Positions 22,060-63,553 of a stretch of DNA of 64,000 bases are shown here, in pieces (position 1 is the first letter of the stretch; each line of letters begins with the position of its first letter). The notes below the pieces were generated by a model that saw only the letters and a list, made by a program, of their open reading frames with translations, ran no database searches and was not told the DNA's origin. Origin of the DNA: an uncultured Holophagales bacterium (GTDB taxonomy: Bacteria; Acidobacteriota; Thermoanaerobaculia; Multivoradales; UBA5704); assembly GCA_963842525.1 (NCBI GenBank), contig CAWJGT010000003.1:1216001-1280000 (forward strand). Reading direction: 5' to 3'. A program made the translations under genes and the position numbers.

Positions 22060-22536
22060 TTACGGTTCGGACGTGTCGACGGGGCCGCGCCGCAGGAACC
22101 GCGCGAGCCGAAGCAAGAGGCCCTTCTGGTCGTCCCCGTTCTCCGTGCAGACGAGGACCGTATTCTCCCCTGCGATCGTGCCCACCACCTCGGGCCAATG
22201 CAACAGGTCGATGGCCATGGCCACGATCCGGGCCGTCCCGGACCGCGTCCTGACCAGGGTCTGGTAGGGCCCCGCGGTCTTGAACGCCTCGACGAAGTCG
22301 GTGAACCGCCCCAGGTCCCACTCCTCCGACACCCCGGGCTCGAGGACATAGCGGCCATTGGAGCGGTGGACCCCCAGCTCCCGCAGGTCGCGGCTGATAC
22401 TCGGCTGCGTCGCCTGGACCGACTGCTCCCGCAGCTTCCTCACCAGGTCCGCCTGGCTCCGGATCGGCTTCTTCTCCCGCAGGAGCTGAAGGATCGCCTT
22501 CCGGCGCAGCGCGCGAACCTCTGGATTGCTTGGCAT
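22060..22536 (-). CDS. argR: Arginine repressor (ArgR-like)
   Basis: RSQADLV...QATQPSISRDLRELG wHTH and VVGTIAGENTVLV C-terminal motif. Confidence 0.85.
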   Translation of the reverse strand: MPSNPEVRALRRKAILQLLREKKPIRSQADLVRKLREQSVQATQPSISRDLRELGVHRSNGRYVLEPGVSEEWDLGRFTDFVEAFKTAGPYQTLVRTRSGTARIVAMAIDLLHWPEVVGTIAGENTVLVCTENGDDQKGLLLRLARFLRRGPVDTSEP

Positions 22537-22597
22537 GATGATGCTCCTTGTAATGCGAATACTGTAGAATAGAGAACCAAAAACTTCAATCCCCCCC

Positions 22598-22632
22598 TTG
22601 ACAAGCCCCTCCCGGACATGAATACTAATTCA
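22598..22632 (+). promoter_or_regulatory. sigma70 promoter overlapped by an ARG-box-like palindrome
   Basis: TTGACA (22598-22603), 17 bp, AATACT (22621-22626); TGAATACTAATTCA (22619-22632) fits TGAAT-N4-ATTCA. Confidence 0.7.
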
Positions 22633-22714
22633 CGTTGGATTCAGTGGCAACACCCCGGAGCCGATCCAGGCGCCGGATATTCGAGCCCGGCAAGGGCTCC
22701 TGAGAGGAGAAGCG

Positions 22715-23113
22715 ATGTCGAAGGAAACCACGTACGCGGGGCTGTTGGGGGACTGGCGGCGGATCCTGACCGCCATTATTGCCAACCTCGGCCAGCTTCC
22801 GGACCTGCAGGGATTCGTCAACCGGCTCGAGGCGCTGCTGAACCGGGGGTACGATCTCACCCGGCAGCAGGCGGCGTACACCGCCGGCAAGCAGGAGACC
22901 TCCAAGCAGCTCAAAGAGGTGATGAAGGAGGGCGACCGGCTGGCGACCGTGCTGCGGAAGTCGTTGCAGTCGCACTACGGTCCCGACGCGGAGAAGCTCG
23001 CCGAGTTCGGCCTGCAGCCGTTCCGCGGCCGCAAGCCGAAGGAGGAGCCGAAGCCCGCGAATCCGCCCGCGCCTGAGGCCACCGCGCCGCCTGCCAACGA
23101 AGCCACCCGCTAA
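22715..23113 (+). CDS. Small helical hypothetical protein (132 aa; YGPDAEKLAEFGLQPFRGRK motif)
   Basis: GAGGAG RBS, amphipathic helices, Pro/Ala tail. Confidence 0.8.
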   Translation: MSKETTYAGLLGDWRRILTAIIANLGQLPDLQGFVNRLEALLNRGYDLTRQQAAYTAGKQETSKQLKEVMKEGDRLATVLRKSLQSHYGPDAEKLAEFGLQPFRGRKPKEEPKPANPPAPEATAPPANEATR

Positions 23114-23190
23114 CCACCACACCCCGGGGGGACGTGCCCGCGCACGTCCCCCCGCCCTTTCCTCCGCCCCGCCCTCCCTGAAGCGCGTTC

Positions 23191-23616
23191 CACGGAGTTT
23201 TCCAACCGCGTGAGGAGTTTGCCAACGGCTCGCCGCGTTTTCCGACGGGCTGCCGGAAACTCCGGCTCGCCGTCGGAAAAAAGAAACGCGCTGCCGCCTT
23301 TTCCGACAGTCTGCCGCGTTTTCCGGCGCGCCGCCGGAAAATTAAAACGGCCTGCCGCGTTTTCCAACGCTCTGCCGGAAACTCCGGCGCGCCGTCGGAA
23401 AAGAGAAACGCGCCGTCGCGTTTTCCGACGCTTTGCCGCGTTCTCCAACAGCCTGCCGGAAACTCCGGCGGGTCGTCGGAAAACAAAAACGCGCCGCCGC
23501 GATTTCCAACGGCCCGCCGCTTTTTCCGGCGCGCCGTCGGAGATTCCGGCAGGCCGTCGGAAAATCAAAACGGGCTGCCGCGTTTTCCAACGGGCCGCCG
23601 GAAATTCCAACGGGCC
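23191..23616. repeat. Non-coding array of ~21 degenerate 20/21-bp units forming repeated hairpins
   Basis: Units such as GCCGCGTTTTCCGACGGGCT, GCCGGAAACTCCGGCTCGCC, GTCGGAAAAAAGAAACGCGCT in recurring order. Confidence 0.9.
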
Positions 23617-23990
23617 GTCTTCGCGAGAGCCACCCGCGACAGCGGGACCCGCCCCCCTCTGAAAGGCCCGGCAACTTGGCTCCGCAAGCTCCGGGGGAGG
23701 AGCGTTCTGAGCCCATCGACAACCTGTAGCCTTAGGGGGTGTCTCGAAAGTTCTGCTGCCGGCGTCGCCGGGAAACCTCACCCCCGGTCACTCCCCCTTC
23801 AACACCGCTGGCGCCGTGAGGGCAGTGTCCGGAGCGCTCTCAGCCCTCGGGCTCAGTCATCCCGCTCCAGGCCCGACCCACGCCGAAGCGTGCCGTCTGG
23901 GGAGCCGGCTCTTCTCGCCGTAGAAGAGAATTTGCGCCCATCGGTGACCTCGGGCTAGCTCGAAGCACCCAGAAGGAGTAGAATGGGCGC

Positions 23991-24476
23991 ATGCGCCCGA
24001 CGGTCTACATCGAGACAAGCATCATAAGCTACTTGGCGGCGTATCCAAGTCGGGATCTTATTACCGCTGCACACCAGCAGATTGCGCATACATGGTGGCA
24101 GGTACGCCGTCCGGAGTTTTCGATCTTTGTGTCGCAGGTTGTGCTGGACGAGTCAGCGGCAGGTGATCCCCAGATGGCGAGCAAGCGCATCGAGATCTTG
24201 ACCAATGTACCTCTGTTGGAGGTTACTCCAGAGGTGGCCGAATTGGCAGCAACGCTCATCATGAGGCTACCCCTACCTCCGCGTGCGGGAGCCGACGCGG
24301 CGCATATCGCCGTGGCAGCGTACCACGGCATGAACTTTTTGCTGACTTGGAACTGCACGCATATCGCGAATGCGGTTCTACGGCCAAAAATTGAGAAAAT
24401 CTGTAGAGAGCAAGGATACTCAGCTCCGGTGCTGTGCACACCGGAAGAACTTGTAGGAGATGCAGACAATGGCTAA
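23991..24476 (+). CDS. PIN-domain (VapC-like) toxin
   Basis: VYIETSIISYL, DAAHIAVA, LLTWNCTHIAN. Confidence 0.88.
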   Translation: MRPTVYIETSIISYLAAYPSRDLITAAHQQIAHTWWQVRRPEFSIFVSQVVLDESAAGDPQMASKRIEILTNVPLLEVTPEVAELAATLIMRLPLPPRAGADAAHIAVAAYHGMNFLLTWNCTHIANAVLRPKIEKICREQGYSAPVLCTPEELVGDADNG

Positions 24477-24678
24477 AGACCATTCTCCTGTTGAGGTATG
24501 GCACGATCCGATCGTGGCCGGGGTGCGGCAGGCCCGAGAGGCGCTTTTTGCCGCCGCAAACTACGACATTCACGAATTTTGCCGGCGTCTCTCAGACAGG
24601 CAATCGACCTCCGGCCATGCTGTCGTGAAGCGTGGCAGCACTTCCATTGAAAACTCTTTGGGGGAGACGCTCGGCTAA
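24469..24678 (+). CDS. Putative antitoxin partner (DPIVAGVRQARE motif)
   Basis: Overlaps the PIN gene stop; its stop lies inside the attC R'' box. Confidence 0.65.
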   Translation: MAKDHSPVEVWHDPIVAGVRQAREALFAAANYDIHEFCRRLSDRQSTSGHAVVKRGSTSIENSLGETLG

Positions 24679-24734
24679 CACGGCTGTTGCAGCGGATGGC
24701 TTCGCCACCGCTGAACAGCAAATCCGTGTTAGGG
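24673..24734 (+). mobile_element. Integron attC recombination site
   Basis: GGCTAAC...GTTAGGG ends; internal CTGTT(G)CAGCGG(A)TGGC-TTC-GCCACCGCTGAACAG hairpin with extrahelical bases. Confidence 0.8.
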
Positions 24735-25086
24735 CCCCTATCCCGATTAGGCGGCGGCCGATGACGATTAGACCGACTCTCGCCCTGACATAGGTGCACT
24801 AAAGAAATGTTACCCTTTCTTACGAGATTCAAGGTAGCACGGCTCACCGCGGCGCTTAAGAGTTCGCGTCAGGAGAATCACAAGAACTTCGGTTCAGAGG
24901 AGACAAACGAGAGGAACAACACGGCACGTCCCTGATACGTCTATATCGAAGATTCTGGTGCGTGAGAACCGTGATAGTTGCGTCGACAGTCGTGCCGATT
25001 TTGCACCAGGCTCTATCGCTTTGGTGTTGATAGACATGAGCGTAGTATCCCAGAAAGCTTCGATACATCGGAGATGCGGACAGGCC

Positions 25087-27153
25087 ATGGCTAGAGAGAA
25101 ACAAAACCCACGGTATGATGATCTTATCTCTAAGATAAAAAATAATCGTGCCGTTGCATTGCTCTTGGTTGTGGGACTAGCCATAAGCTCGCTGGCGTTG
25201 TTCATCGAAGCTTCTGCCAAGATATACAATCTGGTCGACAAGCTAATTCAGGTGCGTCCGGGCACGCCTCCCCTTACCTTGGTCATCGACGATAGCGCGC
25301 CAACTGGCATAACTGGCATTGATTGGTCAATCATCAATACTTCGGACAAGAACCTTGAACTGACATCTATAGTAGCTATTCAGCTTGTCAATGTAGACCT
25401 ATGCCGGGGCTGCCTTTTGAAGGACAGGATAAAGCTAGCCCTCAGGTTGGGTAGCCGCGTCAAAGGGGGACAATCGGTCGAAGGCAAGATGGAGTGGGGT
25501 CCTACGCGTATTTTTGGGGATGTTGGTGTGTATTATCTTACTCCTGGGGAGAGCGCCCCTTTCTCTCTCCAAATAGCTGCGCCAGGTAACGTCGGAAGCG
25601 TGTTTCACCTGAAGCTCTTAGCTAATGATCTTAAGCGCGGCGATCGAATAACTGTGATACCTCCTTATCTTTTTTATTATGTTGGACCTCCAGACTATCC
25701 CTCCGCATCCCTCCGAGCAATAACCTTCACTTCCTGGTTAACCGAGAGTGACTCCTATCTACGCTTAAACGCGGCTAGAGGCCTCGGCGTCCTTAAGGAT
25801 ACGAGAGGAGAAGAAGCTCTTATTAAAGCTTTACAGCGGGATACCGTTTCAAGTGTTCGGGCTGCTGCAGCTCAAAGCCTTTCTCGCTTTAAAAGCGAGA
25901 GGTCTTTTTCGGCTTTACTCAATACTCTATTGCGATTTCACGCTGCCCCTGGCTTCAATGAGTACCAGGAAGCGGAGGTAAGGCGGGCGGCAGCAGCGGC
26001 ACTCGGTGATCGACAAGACCGAAGAGCAGTGCCGTATCTCTTGGAGGCATGGAGAAGCGACCCTGGATTACTGGTTGCAAATACGGCGGTAGAATCAGTC
26101 GTAAAGCTTGATCCTCCTGGAGCCTATGAGACTCTTACGACAATCCTAGCAAATTATGACTCTCGAGCGCCCGAAGAACACCATAGCCGTGGATTCATAG
26201 TTTCCGCGATTGGACACTTATCCGATGATAGAGCTGCCGATGTTCTGATAGATCAATTGTTTTGCAGCGATCGCTCTTCGCAATCTGCCGCAGCTGACGC
26301 TTTGGGCAGTGAAAGTGTTAAGTGTGTTGAGGCACTTATGGCAGTGGCGAAACGAGGGCTCGATCCATGGTCTCGACAGAAGGCGATTCGTGCGCTGGGA
26401 GAGTTGCAGGCTGAACGTGCTCTCAACCTCCTTAGGATGATATCTTCTTCCGATACTGACGAAGACCTGCGGCGCACAGCTAAAGAGGCTATTCAAGACA
26501 TAAATGATGGCGTCGCCTCAAACGTTAAAAGAGATGACAATACTGGCTGTGGAGAGCACATTGAGCAAGTGGTGAGGGAAAGTCAACGTTTCCAAATCCG
26601 TTCTCAAATTGGTATACCAAAGTTGTCCCTCCGTCATACTTGCGACGATCCCGATCTAATGGAGACAGTCCAAATAATTGAAGCGCTTGGAGTTAGGGTT
26701 CAGCCAACGCAAGTCGCAACGGAAGAAGCCGCTATGTTTCCGGAAACTAATGGTGAGTTTACCTATCCGGAGCCACTGAGAGGAGAGGCCGAGAAGGTCC
26801 TTGCAGCAGTCCAAGGGAAATTTCGCGTGCCGATTCGCCTAGTTGAGTGGAGTGTCAGCACTATGAGGCTAACTTGGCACTGTAAGCCTGGCATTATAAT
26901 GTTCGCTAAACAGAAATCAGACCAATTAGACAAAGTAGTAGAGCACTTAAGAGATCGATCCTGGGCAATTTCATTGAGCTATAGCGAGAATTGGGGTGAC
27001 GAGCCCTTTATTCTTTCACAGAAGGATGACTTGTCTGCCAAGTTAGCCAGAGATCTTGAGCGATTCGGACGAGTTGAGGTGAGGCTCGCACCTAAGGGTT
27101 TGCTGCAAGCAGGCAACGTCCCGGTGCTTTACTGGGTGGACCGAACCAAATAG
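25087..27153 (+). CDS. Membrane-anchored HEAT-repeat protein (low GC, cassette-like)
   Basis: N-terminal TM helix; repeats VRAAAAQSL, VRRAAAAALG, RQKAIRALGEL; visibly AT-richer than the flanks. Confidence 0.8.
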   Translation: MAREKQNPRYDDLISKIKNNRAVALLLVVGLAISSLALFIEASAKIYNLVDKLIQVRPGTPPLTLVIDDSAPTGITGIDWSIINTSDKNLELTSIVAIQLVNVDLCRGCLLKDRIKLALRLGSRVKGGQSVEGKMEWGPTRIFGDVGVYYLTPGESAPFSLQIAAPGNVGSVFHLKLLANDLKRGDRITVIPPYLFYYVGPPDYPSASLRAITFTSWLTESDSYLRLNAARGLGVLKDTRGEEALIKALQRDTVSSVRAAAAQSLSRFKSERSFSALLNTLLRFHAAPGFNEYQEAEVRRAAAAALGDRQDRRAVPYLLEAWRSDPGLLVANTAVESVVKLDPPGAYETLTTILANYDSRAPEEHHSRGFIVSAIGHLSDDRAADVLIDQLFCSDRSSQSAAADALGSESVKCVEALMAVAKRGLDPWSRQKAIRALGELQAERALNLLRMISSSDTDEDLRRTAKEAIQDINDGVASNVKRDDNTGCGEHIEQVVRESQRFQIRSQIGIPKLSLRHTCDDPDLMETVQIIEALGVRVQPTQVATEEAAMFPETNGEFTYPEPLRGEAEKVLAAVQGKFRVPIRLVEWSVSTMRLTWHCKPGIIMFAKQKSDQLDKVVEHLRDRSWAISLSYSENWGDEPFILSQKDDLSAKLARDLERFGRVEVRLAPKGLLQAGNVPVLYWVDRTK

Positions 27154-27335
27154 GGTTCAGCCTAACTAATTAGCCGAGTGGCCGGGAGCCTCGTTGAGCC
27201 AGGCTGAGGCCCCAGGTGGCCAGAGGAGCCGATCGTGGTCCCGGAGGTTTCCTGCCAACCGGTAGATCCGTTGTAGAATAAAGAAAGGCGCGCAGTGGAA
27301 CCATAGCTATATACGCGAGCAGGAAACCTTGGTTC

Positions 27336-27397
27336 GGCCAACCAAGCGGCTCCAGCGGACGGCTGGCGCCGCGCGCTGAGCCGCCACAGCGTTGCTG
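27336..27397 (+). mobile_element. Degenerate attC site
   Basis: GGCCAAC-CAAGCGGCTCCAGCGGACGG...CGCTGAGCCGC...GTTGCTG, typical attC arm pattern. Confidence 0.6.
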
Positions 27398-27448
27398 CCG
27401 GCAGAAGGTGCGAATCGCGGTACACGTTGCTACTTGGTGGAGGACAGA

Positions 27449-27600
27449 ATGGCAGAGCGTAAGATTTTAAGCCATTTGGAGATTGCCTACTCCTCGATCC
27501 GTGTCTTTGCCGAGGATGGCAGGTCCCGCAATCCAAAGTAAGCGGGGAGGTCTGGAGACGAATCCAAGAAATAAGAAGATTGCACCACATTGAGGCCTAG
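27449..27600 (+). pseudogene. Degraded small cassette ORF
   Basis: GGAGG RBS plus MAERKILSHLEIAYSSIRVFAEDG, then a frame break to VWRRIQEIRRLHHIEA*; lies directly after the attC. Confidence 0.35.
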
Positions 27601-32375: not shown

Positions 32376-32517
32376 CCCTCACCCCCGCCCCTCTCTCATC
32401 CGCCCTTCCTTCCCCCGGGAGAGAGGAGAAAAGCATGATCAGGAAGCTCCTGGGAGGGGGCTCCCCTCTCCCGGGCGGGTGTGAGTGCGGCTGGGAGAGG
32501 GGCCGGGGGTGAGGGGC
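32376..32517. repeat. Two inverted REP-like palindromic elements
   Basis: CCCTCACCCCCGCCCCTCTCTC...GAGAGG and CCCCTCTCCC...GGGAGAGGGGCCGGGGGTGAGGG. Confidence 0.75.
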
Positions 32518-32549
32518 CAGGGCTCGCGCAGGAATTTCCAGACACCCTC

Positions 32550-55969: not shown

Positions 55970-56025
55970 GGCTCTATTTTATCCGGTCTCCGCGAGCCCC
56001 TCGAGATGTCCGCGAATGCGGCCGA

Positions 56026-56296
56026 TTCATGAAGAACGAGGGCCGATTCACGGGAAACGGCTTCGCGGTCACGGCGAATCGGGCCCGTTCACGGCGAATC
56101 GGGCCGAGATCATGACGAACCGCGGCCGGATCACCGCGATGAGGGGCGGTTCACCGTGAATCGGCCCGCGTTCACGGCAAACCAGGGCCAGTTCACCATG
56201 AATCGGCCCGCGTTCACGGCAAACCAGGGCCAGTTCACCATGAATCGCCCCGCGTTCGTGGCAAACCAGAGCCGGTTCACCGTGAATCGGAGCCGG
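56026..56296. repeat. Array of 13 degenerate 20/21-bp units with a TTCAC-N3/4-GAA core
   Basis: e.g. TTCACCATGAATCGGCCCGCG and TTCACGGCAAACCAGGGCCAG alternating. Confidence 0.9.
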
Positions 56297-58021
56297 TCAG
56301 GACCCCGCCTCCGCCGGAGCCTCCTTCTTCTCGGCCCGCACCTGGCCCCGGATGGCGTCGAGGTCGAGGTCGACGATCGGCTCGCCGGCCAGGGCGGCGG
56401 CGAGCTTGGTGTCGTGGCCGTAGACGTCGCGGCGGAGCTGAACGGTGCCGTCCTCGTCCACCCAGGCGGTGAAGTAGAGGATGTGGACCGGCAGCGGCTT
56501 CGGCAGGGTGATGCTCCGGGTCTCCCCGGAGGCGATGGCCTCCTGGATCTTCTCCGGCGTCCAGTCCTTATCCCCCTGCAAGAGATAGCGCGCCAGGTCG
56601 AGCGGCCTCTCCAGGCGGATGCAACCGTGGCTGAAGTCGCGCTCCTCCTGCTTGAAGAGGTGGTCCGCCGGCGTGTCGTGCAGGTAGATGTCGAACTCGT
56701 TGGGGAACATGAACTTCACCTGGCCCAGAGGGTTGTCCGGTCCCGGGCGCTGCCGCAGCCGTGTAGTGCCGTCCGCCTCGACCACCTCCATGTTGTGACG
56801 GGCCAGGTAGCCCGGATCGCTGGCGAGCTTCGGCGTGATCTCCTCGGCTGCGATCCCCGCCGGGATGTTCCAGGCCGGGTTGAGCTCGACGTAAGTCATC
56901 TTGTCGCTGAAGACCGGCGTGCGGCTCTGCTGCGCCTTGCCCACGACCACCCGCATCTCCAGGGCCGTCCGGCCCTGATCCACGACCTGCATCGCGAACT
57001 CGGGGATGTTGACCTGGATATGGCGGTCGCCCAGGGTGGCCGGCATCCAGCGCCTGCGTTCCAGGTTGACCGCGATCTGGCGGATGCGGTGCTCGACCGG
57101 CACGTTGAGCTCGGCCAGGGTGTCGGCCTCCACGCTGCCGGTGGGATCTAGGCCGTGCCGCTTCTGGAAGCGGGCCAGGGCGGCAGCCAGGGCCTGGTCG
57201 AAGACCATCTCCTGGGGTGACTGTCCATTTGCGCCATTGGGGGTCGCCGTGCCTGGCAGGTCGCCCTCGGCCCGCAGCCGGACGCGCAGGACCCGGACCG
57301 CCTCCCCTTTCGAGCCCTTCTTCAGCTTGGCTTCCGGTACGGCCGGCCAGCCGCCTTTCGCGGCGATCTGCCGGTAGCGGTCCAGGGCATCACGCAGCCG
57401 CGCATAGTCCTCCCCTGACGGTACGTAGCTGTGCAGCACCTCGCTGACCGTCCCTTTCTCGGACAGGGCCTTTTCGAGCCGCATGTCGAGGTCGACGCTG
57501 CGCGGCTTGGTGTACCAGTCGATGCGCAGAGTCTCAGGCTGCTGGCGGCCGGTGGCCAGGTGAACGCCCATGGTGAGGAAGGTGTAGGTCAGGCTCATGT
57601 CGGCGTGGGCCAGGTAGCGCTGGGCCGCCGGATCCTCGAAGGAAGGGTTTTCGCCGATCTGGAGCACCATGCCCGCGAGCTTGTCCTTGCGGTAGCGCCG
57701 CGGATCGAGCCCCTCCCGGGCCATCCCGTCGATGGCGGCGAGAAGCTCTTCGGCCTGCGGCTTGGGGCCTTTGGCCGTGAACCAGGCGGGCTGGAACTGC
57801 CGCTTCTGATAGAAGCGGCGCATCTCCTCCCAGGCGCGGACCCGCTCCTTCTGCTCCTTCAGGGAGGCAGGGAGGGTCTTCACCTCCACGGTGGACTGGA
57901 TCATCTGGGCGACTTCCGGGGGGATCTCCCGCTCGCGGCAGCCCGCGGCGAGGAGGAACGCCGCAGCGCAAAGCGCAGGGGCGATATGGATCGACAGGGA
58001 TCGGACGATTCTCGGTCTCAT
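56297..58021 (-). CDS. L,D-transpeptidase (YcbB/LdtD-like) lipoprotein with PG-binding domain
   Basis: LAAGC lipobox, FQKRHGL, IYLHDTP, SHGCIRL. Confidence 0.92.
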   Translation of the reverse strand: MRPRIVRSLSIHIAPALCAAAFLLAAGCREREIPPEVAQMIQSTVEVKTLPASLKEQKERVRAWEEMRRFYQKRQFQPAWFTAKGPKPQAEELLAAIDGMAREGLDPRRYRKDKLAGMVLQIGENPSFEDPAAQRYLAHADMSLTYTFLTMGVHLATGRQQPETLRIDWYTKPRSVDLDMRLEKALSEKGTVSEVLHSYVPSGEDYARLRDALDRYRQIAAKGGWPAVPEAKLKKGSKGEAVRVLRVRLRAEGDLPGTATPNGANGQSPQEMVFDQALAAALARFQKRHGLDPTGSVEADTLAELNVPVEHRIRQIAVNLERRRWMPATLGDRHIQVNIPEFAMQVVDQGRTALEMRVVVGKAQQSRTPVFSDKMTYVELNPAWNIPAGIAAEEITPKLASDPGYLARHNMEVVEADGTTRLRQRPGPDNPLGQVKFMFPNEFDIYLHDTPADHLFKQEERDFSHGCIRLERPLDLARYLLQGDKDWTPEKIQEAIASGETRSITLPKPLPVHILYFTAWVDEDGTVQLRRDVYGHDTKLAAALAGEPIVDLDLDAIRGQVRAEKKEAPAEAGS

Positions 58022-63346: not shown

Positions 63347-63553
63347 CCTCACCCCCTGTCCCCCTCTCCCATCGCCCCCCCTTCCGCCGGGAGAGGGGGG
63401 ACGTGGTTGGTGCTCTGAGGGGATAGATTGCAGTTTCTTTTCAGAGACTCTTTCTCATCAAGAATGCCTTGACCTCGCCTTCCAAGCTCCAGCGGCGTCC
63501 CCCCTCTCCCGGTCGGTGGGGGGGGCGATGGGAGAGGGGGACAGGGGGTGAGG
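63347..63553. repeat. Two inverted REP-like palindromic elements
   Basis: CCTCACCCCCTGTCCCCCTCTCCC...GGGAGAGGGGG and its inverted copy at ~63500-63553. Confidence 0.75.

Follow-up and report, generated by a model that had tools for sequence, protein, structure and literature searches.

Background

Subirana and Messeguer have described constant-size, variable-sequence tandem repeats of bacteria, which are non-coding, have a unit of 20-21 or 52 nt, and occur as several species-specific families per genome with a short motif kept in all units (PMC8161180). In the part of their account considered here, 20-21 nt is equated with two helical turns of DNA, the proposed explanations are small RNAs or a protein that forms polymers on DNA, the function is given as unknown and no gene family is described as linked to the repeats (PMC8161180). 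Another described class, the repetitive extragenic palindromic (REP) elements, is characterised in the portion of the literature drawn on here as imperfect palindromes with an unpaired GTAG or CGTC tag at one end (PMC3733652).

Here we report on an array of 20- and 21-bp units that follows the gene for a 132-amino-acid protein (hereafter p132), itself divergent from a gene for an ArgR-like repressor, in a 64,000-nucleotide stretch from an uncultured Holophagales bacterium of the Acidobacteriota (assembly GCA_963842525.1, contig CAWJGT010000003.1, positions 1,216,001 to 1,280,000); this whole stretch is called the window, and positions given without a contig or locus name refer to it. We find that the array belongs to a known class and that, within this genome, it is a dispersed element of a generic kind. 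Moreover, such arrays show a strong and evolutionarily recurrent preference for the 3' flank of p132 genes, just beyond a terminator-like hairpin, and the 3' flank of genes of a tetratricopeptide repeat (TPR) family is likewise preferred; both preferences are new. An earlier reading made from the letters alone (the sequence-only reading) had proposed that the repressor, p132 and the array form a module like no described system, the array acting either as co-transcribed RNA or as DNA. The observation itself is confirmed, while the interpretation as a whole is partly supported, and the claim of novelty was wrong for the array, as the class had been published (PMC8161180, in the part seen).

Results

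Structure of the array

The array starts 74 bp past the stop codon of the p132 gene and covers about 450 bases (Table 1). Tandem Repeats Finder reported periods of 20, 61, 81 and 122 (top score 348), and phasing by hand and by script resolved 22 units (16 with 20 bp, 6 with 21 bp), in close agreement with the approximately 21 units and the gap of about 80 bp noted from the letters alone. The units are of three types in the order AAABCAACABCAABCAABCAB, followed by a degenerate last unit, and from 23228 on they carry G(C/T)CG at constant phase. B units are 15-bp palindromes, A and C units bear 9-bp inverted arms, and both motif orientations are present in each super-unit. The proposed pairing of A with C around the palindromic B was borne out: over five A/C arm pairs and five B palindromes, 68 of 75 positions are Watson-Crick pairs, with 2 G.T and 5 A.C making up the rest, and in one A/C arm pair a two-sided change (GAC/GTC to GGC/GCC) keeps the pairing. 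With up to one mismatch, GCCGYSGGAAAA has 9 matches in the window, 7 of them inside the array, as compared to 1.8 expected. The two strands have folding energies of -227 and -256 kcal/mol (z-scores of -6.95 for the plus and -7.70 for the minus strand; 0 of 100 shuffles equalled the array), and relative to p132 the antisense strand is the better folder.

The array is intergenic and, as had been argued from the unit lengths, its mixture of 20 and 21 bp disrupts any reading frame; long open reading frames (ORFs) pass through it on both strands merely owing to GC-richness. Unit phasing showed that the units abut directly with no spacers of the CRISPR kind, and no Cas family was found among the neighbour proteins scanned (the ArgR-like protein, a protein with the core domain of extracellular contractile injection systems (eCIS), a PIN-domain protein and a HEAT-repeat protein); in agreement with the sequence-only reading, the array does not qualify as CRISPR. 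An Rfam scan of the array returned no family at the gathering score, microRNA-like matches being found below threshold only, and four soil-metagenome DNA runs yielded only short contigs, none of which spans the array.

Table 1. Positions of the features discussed (window coordinates unless a locus is named)
Feature	Position	Strand	Description
ArgR-like repressor paralogue, 158 aa	22060-22536	-	PF01316 2.8e-12, PF02863 1.1e-15
Divergent promoter pair with palindrome CATGAATACTAATTCACG (22618-22635)	22598-22650	.	candidate operator of the ArgR-like protein
Conserved 5' leader of p132	22660-22714		GGCGCCGGATRTTCGAGCCC, loop, GGGCTC, ribosome-binding site
p132 gene, 132 aa	22715-23113	+	small helical protein, Acidobacteriota-only multi-copy family
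Terminator-like hairpin	23125-23154	+	perfect 13-bp GC-rich stem, 4-nt loop, then CCCTTTCC
Phased repeat array, units A/B/C	23187-23633	.	about 22 units of 20/21 bp
TPR-family example	L010:729-2144		
TPR-family example	L009:1392-2774		
TPR protein, 670 aa	28902-30914		
Second array, other family	56020-56297		21/42-bp, units such as GTTCACCGTGAATCGGCCCGC
L,D-transpeptidase gene	56297-58021	-	stop codon abutted by the second array
Low-GC islet	23991-27600		48-58% GC vs 68% in the genome
Protein with eCIS-core (DUF4157) domain, 844 aa	18663-21197		domain match 6.6e-28

A genome-wide class of arrays

Loci homologous to the window put the host genome (G000; 9.95 Mb in 34 contigs, 67.8% GC) in the Holophagales/Thermoanaerobaculia group of the Acidobacteriota. 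A run of Tandem Repeats Finder on this whole genome returned 771 rows, among which period 21 occurred 112 times, period 42 86 times and period 63 52 times; periods of 20, 41, 61 and 62 were likewise frequent. After merging, 271 of 390 repeat loci had a period that was a multiple of approximately 20.5. We then defined an array set by a length of at least 100 bp and 20-21-bp units, with protein repeats of 120, 123 and 126 bp removed and families delimited by shared 11-mers. This set holds 203 arrays in 63 sequence families, 24 of which have at least two loci (30, 26 and 18 in the biggest families), and in every one of the 203 arrays the mean unit lies between 19.75 and 21.25 bp. Arrays were scarce between divergent genes (25/165, as compared to 642/2731 intergenic gaps).

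The unit family of the array described here has three loci genome-wide, two of them without p132 or an ArgR-like gene. One of these two lies 41 bp behind rpsT (Pfam S20, 3.5e-31), and the third locus is unrelated to both. In 19 relatives for which rpsT was matched, the position behind this gene never holds an array, which suggests that such arrays are gained and lost like dispersed elements. A generic dispersed repeat was the very outcome that the sequence-only reading had named as fatal to its module, and it is the one that the family counts and the scattered loci of this unit family bear out.

In 3 of the 19 relatives (L056, L057 and L059), the rpsT flank holds another palindromic repeat instead, CCCTCACCCCC...CCCCTCTCCC...GGGAGAGGGG, for which a classical genus-level element of the REP type is a possible identity; short motifs resembling it are found in the window at approximately 63347-63548 and at 32493-32522 as well as elsewhere in G000. 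The window also contains a second array of another family (Table 1). This family has 8 loci in the genome, at least one of which adjoins a gene for an IS1-like transposase (L016).

Arrays are concentrated downstream of p132 and TPR-family genes

Association between arrays and genes was scored within 450 bp downstream or upstream of each gene. In the host genome, an array was found downstream of 15 of the 39 p132 loci and upstream of 1, as compared to 187 of 7322 (2.6%) and 163 of 7322, respectively, for all called genes; for the downstream side this corresponds to an odds ratio of 24 (P = 3e-14, Fisher's exact test, with paralogues that are not independent). The same direction was seen in a second Holophagales metagenome-assembled genome (MAG), G010, where 11 of 22 p132 loci (the count takes in 22 of 34 p132 matches) had an array downstream and 2 of 22 upstream. 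Ten other relatives, represented by one locus apiece, had an array downstream in 5 of 10 cases, weak in one of the ten, and upstream in 2 of 10; moreover, all three p132 loci of a Thermoanaerobaculia MAG were followed by 19-bp arrays. The expectation that homologues of the 132-aa protein would be followed by arrays thus held in each of these samples. The p132-linked arrays differ in sequence from each other: a common array family is seen only where two p132 proteins are 87-89% identical, and pairs at or below 66% identity are followed by unrelated arrays.

A similar bias was found for the TPR family, members of which have an N-terminal zinc-finger (anti-sigma-like) or helix-turn-helix region followed by TPR repeats. 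In the host genome, 14 of 75 TPR-family genes had an array downstream and 2 of 75 upstream (odds ratio of 8.8 for the downstream side). The set consists of first-pass phmmer matches only (114 hits); an iterated hidden Markov model (HMM) drifted to generic TPR proteins (from 114 to 280 hits). One 670-aa TPR protein is encoded within the window (Table 1). A third family, of approximately 180 aa, has an array downstream of 5 of its 17 members, and of the 187 genes that an array follows, 144 are unrelated singletons. All three array-associated gene types are found together at a locus of G010 (L038; G010 C3:4258623-4261970), in which a TPR gene is followed by a 740-bp array with a 63-bp period, a convergent p132 gene and a divergent ArgR-like gene.

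Hairpins ahead of the arrays and folding of the two strands

In the window, a hairpin begins twelve bases past the p132 stop codon, ahead of the array (Table 1). It was not listed by a terminator scan, its T-run being below that scan's rule, and a promoter scan found no promoter-like site between this hairpin and the array. Folding of the paralogous loci placed a GC-rich hairpin and a T-rich stretch between the p132 stop codon and the array in 12 of 15 cases. The sense strand was the better folder for 6 of 15 p132-linked arrays and for 11 of 17 TPR-linked arrays, with no significant difference between strands in either group (P = 0.36 and P = 0.75, respectively; Wilcoxon test). The position of the hairpin in 12 of 15 loci and the lack of a strand bias in folding together argue against a co-transcribed RNA array, one of the two forms considered in the sequence-only reading.

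The p132 protein family

The p132 gene (GC content at third codon positions, GC3, of 0.91) has 220 homologues at E ≤ 0.001, and no family of Pfam or NCBIfam matches its product. An iterated HMM found 45 ORFs of the family in the host genome, corresponding to approximately 39 loci. The family is multi-copy in all 12 genomes sampled from the same taxonomic family, and no member was found in 8 genomes of sister families. Among 40 aligned homologues, G89, E93, F98, P102, F103, R104 and G105 are invariant; all seven fall in the C-terminal motif ..HYG..SEKLAEFGLQPFRGR.., which is followed by a variable tail rich in Pro, Lys and Glu.

An AlphaFold2 model of p132 (predicted local distance difference test score, pLDDT, of 77.8) takes the shape of a helical hairpin (helices 7-23, 29-88 and 93-98), its tail being disordered. 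A Foldseek search with this model against the PDB gave nothing at E ≤ 0.001, the best rows being Rop-like helical hairpins with E above 2, and a sequence-profile search of the PDB gave nothing below E 0.03; structural matches in the Atlas were limited to unnamed Acidobacteriota clusters. No longer, fused forms of p132 were found, and PADLOC assigned no defence family to p132, to the ArgR-like protein or to one TPR-family member. An H-NS/Lsr2-type protein was considered and rejected: Histone_HNS_N matched 1 of 40 members, and that one narrowly, and a helical hairpin is present, but the C-terminus is disordered and there is no folded DNA-binding domain. The proposal that the small protein binds the array thus found no recognisable nucleic-acid-binding fold to rest on. 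Overall, the predicted fold speaks neither for nor against nucleic-acid binding, and the basic FRGR motif is a lead only.

Several p132 paralogues, including the one in the window and those on contigs C19 and C32 of G000, are preceded by a conserved 5' leader (Table 1), which may form a small regulatory hairpin.

The ArgR-like protein and its candidate operator

The ArgR-like protein scores 86.2 bits against the NCBIfam ArgR model TIGR01529, below the cut-off of 130.45, and a tblastn search for its paralogues gave 7 hits in the genome. It has GTIAGENT where the solved ArgRs 1b4a, 1f9n and 3ere have GTI(A/C)GDDT. The Asp-Asp of the GTIAGDDT motif are the residues with which ArgR holds arginine. 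As noted in the sequence-only reading, no arginine genes adjoin the ArgR-like gene.

The region between the ArgR-like and p132 genes contains two promoter-like sites, as compared to 0.1 in shuffled sequences: TTGACA-17-AATACT (plus strand) and TTGCCA-17-TAGTAT (minus strand), with both -10 boxes overlapping a palindrome (Table 1), which we take to resemble ARG boxes. Given this overlap of the predicted operator with the two divergent promoters at their -10 boxes, the ArgR-like protein would silence itself and p132. The palindrome is unique genome-wide at up to 3 mismatches and is not found in the array, which speaks against the array as a binding site of the ArgR-like protein. From the arrangement of these sites, the ArgR-like protein appears to be a dedicated local repressor of its own gene and of p132, and not a general part of the array system.

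A divergent ArgR-like gene lies beside p132 at 3 of 39 loci in the host genome and at 2 of 39 loci fetched from elsewhere (L027 and L038); it was found at 0 of the first 8 loci. All three parts, ArgR-like gene, p132 and array, are found together again at C19 of the host genome and at L038 of G010. Thus, of the suggestion that p132 and its array co-occur with divergent argR paralogues, the recurrence stood and the generality did not: the trio is a recurrent minor variant, not the rule.

Just past the array of the C19 locus lies a gene for a 317-aa protein resembling a REP-associated tyrosine transposase (RAYT), with a match below cut-off (L011:618-1571; G000 C19:421117-422070), and a homologue of this gene is found near the p132 locus at C3:732063.

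Neighbourhood of the locus

Upstream of the ArgR-like gene, the window encodes the protein with an eCIS-core domain (Table 1). A low-GC islet that looks like acquired DNA begins 350 bp after the array; it encodes a PIN-domain protein together with an overlapping ORF of 72 aa, and a HEAT-repeat protein of 731 aa (PADLOC HEAT-ARM_XIII, 1.5e-13). No array units were found beyond the far side of the islet. Genome-wide, low-GC flanks are approximately 1.9-fold enriched near arrays as compared to random positions, a control unmatched for intergenic location; the idea of arrays as hotspots for foreign DNA was set aside.

Discussion

Our preferred explanation of the locus as a whole, which is tentative and which we would put slightly short of an even chance, is that the array is a non-coding tandem repeat of the genome-wide class and functions at the DNA level, as a phased protein-binding or structural repeat, at the preferred flank of p132 and TPR-family genes. 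The array would accordingly act as double-stranded DNA rather than within the p132 mRNA. Its short palindromes and inverted motifs would recur on one face of the helix, which could allow side-by-side binding of a dimeric or oligomeric protein, or hairpin extrusion, and arrays of this kind would appear in and vanish from intergenic DNA in the manner of REP elements and bacterial interspersed mosaic elements (BIME).

Several observations weigh against this explanation. Arrays after TPR genes start 7-100 bp past the stop codon with no intervening hairpin and are probably transcribed as 3' untranslated region (UTR), so that an RNA function stays live for the class as a whole; furthermore, the hairpin behind p132 has a short T-run that failed the terminator rule, and read-through is therefore possible. 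No binder of the arrays was identified, and p132 is without a known DNA-binding fold by the Foldseek (E ≤ 0.001) and Histone_HNS_N (1/40) comparisons. Others concern the counts: the p132 paralogues are interrelated, so that the Fisher P values overstate their independence, and part of the association between p132 and arrays stems from joint duplication. Gene calls came from a crude GC3-based caller, and a minority of the genome-wide 21/42/63-bp arrays are in-frame coding repeats.

The arrays could instead be purely selfish, mobile intergenic repeats of the REP/BIME type with no host function, spread by a RAYT-like Y1 transposase, another transposase or recombination. Adjacency to p132 would then arise because the elements insert or expand past terminator hairpins in dispensable DNA. 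The presence of one unit family at 3 unrelated loci and the lack of the rpsT-flank array in all 19 relatives fit this explanation, as does the depletion between divergent genes, a bias that REPs share according to the part of the source consulted (PMC3733652). It is also consistent with the presence of transposase genes: the gene behind the array at C19 has its best match in the NCBIfam family 'REP-associated tyrosine transposase' (E 3.6e-10; 39.9 bits, not reaching the cut-off of 80), the genome has 22 Y1_Tnp matches, and an IS1-like transposase gene adjoins arrays of another family. Proximity, however, was not significant (5 of 21 Y1 genes within 2.5 kb of an array, as compared to 2.7 expected; P ~0.12), and the unpaired GTAG or CGTC tag is absent, CGTC being found only in a paired arm. 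This explanation also accounts neither for the 20-21-bp unit kept by 63 unrelated families nor for the downstream bias of 15:1 and 11:2 at p132 across genomes. We consider it unlikely, if a serious contender. Rather unlikely, in our estimate, but still a live rival is an array that is transcribed from one strand or the other, giving a structured RNA in which 60-80-nt hairpins follow one another. Such an RNA would regulate, sequester protein as a sponge or, as a 3' element, stabilise mRNA. Strong folding of both strands, the arm pair with a pairing-preserving two-sided change and the position of TPR-linked arrays at the stop codon without a hairpin all point in this direction, and 52-nt repeats of Bacillus coagulans have been reported, in the parts of the sources considered, to be transcribed (PMC8625621, PMC8161180). 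Set against these are the terminator-like hairpin ahead of the array here and in most p132-linked loci, the lack of a consistent strand advantage in either gene family, and the composition of the 7 mismatches, which on the plus strand (5 A.C and 2 G.T) show no wobble signature. The scans for promoter-like sites from hairpin to array and for Rfam families were likewise negative, and a structured RNA gives no reason for a two-helical-turn unit common to unrelated sequences.

Least likely of the four explanations, and in our view very improbable, is a dedicated three-part system, controlled by the ArgR paralogue, in which p132 binds either the DNA of its own array or the RNA. ArgR hexamers bind paired 18-bp boxes approximately 21 bp apart, a spacing that would suit such a system. 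The strong, directional linkage of p132 and arrays and the repetition of the trio at C19 and L038 can be counted in its favour, and the invariant basic FRGR and the Lys/Pro-rich tail of p132 could touch nucleic acid. On the other side, 24 of 39 p132 loci have no array, approximately 90% of arrays have no adjoining p132, and the array's own family occurs without p132; the ArgR-like gene is found at just 3/39 and 2/39 loci, the ArgR-type operator has no second copy in the genome and lies outside the array, and p132 has no known binding fold. A related idea, which we also think improbable, is that p132 proteins are the missing partners of the constant-length repeats, each paralogue, a coiled-coil with the invariant EKLAEFGLQPFRGR motif and a basic tail, assembling on the helically phased array that follows its own gene. 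If so, sites on the chromosome could be marked or insulated by some forty gene-plus-array pairs per genome, and the amount of p132 would be set by local repressors, the ArgR paralogue among them.

Repeats of fixed 20-21-nt length and free sequence are reported across bacterial phyla, with neither a function nor a gene tied to them, and are very abundant in this lineage. Their strong, replicated and directional link to two unannotated multi-copy families provides an experimental handle on array function. If nothing binds the arrays, they would represent a clean case of bacterial satellite-like DNA with a helical-repeat length constraint.

Comparison with known systems

Like ArgR and AhrC, the ArgR-like protein has both an N-terminal winged-helix and a C-terminal hexamerisation domain, and its candidate operator is of the ARG-box type and lies over promoters. 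It differs from them in scoring below the equivalog cut-off, in its GTIAGENT motif, in having no adjacent arginine genes and in being one of 7 paralogues.

Plasmid iterons, sopC behind sopB and the parC of ParR are arrays that lie next to the gene for their binding protein. The array described here resembles such iteron and centromere arrays as a tandem repeat of approximately two helical turns beside a small gene, with variable sequence and constant geometry. Unlike these systems, it has no Rep, ParA or ParM partner among the neighbours scanned, it is one of approximately 200 chromosomal arrays, and p132 has neither a ribbon-helix-helix nor a winged-helix fold.

With REP and BIME elements, the palindromes of which are imperfect and measure 20-40 bp, the arrays share their nature as extragenic palindromes whose neighbours alternate in orientation, here the 15-bp B palindromes and the inverted 9-bp arms of A and C. 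Both are also found mostly on the downstream side of genes, and their presence differs from one relative to another. In contrast to REPs, the array has no GTAG, and its CGTC sits within the paired arm CCGTCGG. Moreover, the units form strict head-to-tail tandems in a 20-21-bp register, whereas REPs have no fixed helical register, and the genome has dozens of array families, each at a small number of loci, whose arrays are not significantly close to Y1 transposase genes.

The array matches the constant-size repeats. As in these, the units of the array are 20-21 bp long, non-coding and marked by a short motif, here G(C/T)CG, and many families that agree in unit length but differ in sequence occur in one genome (here 203 arrays in 63 families). 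Beyond those repeats as described, the arrays reported here occur in Acidobacteriota, contain inverted and palindromic sub-motifs and show a preference for the 3' flanks of p132 and TPR-family genes.

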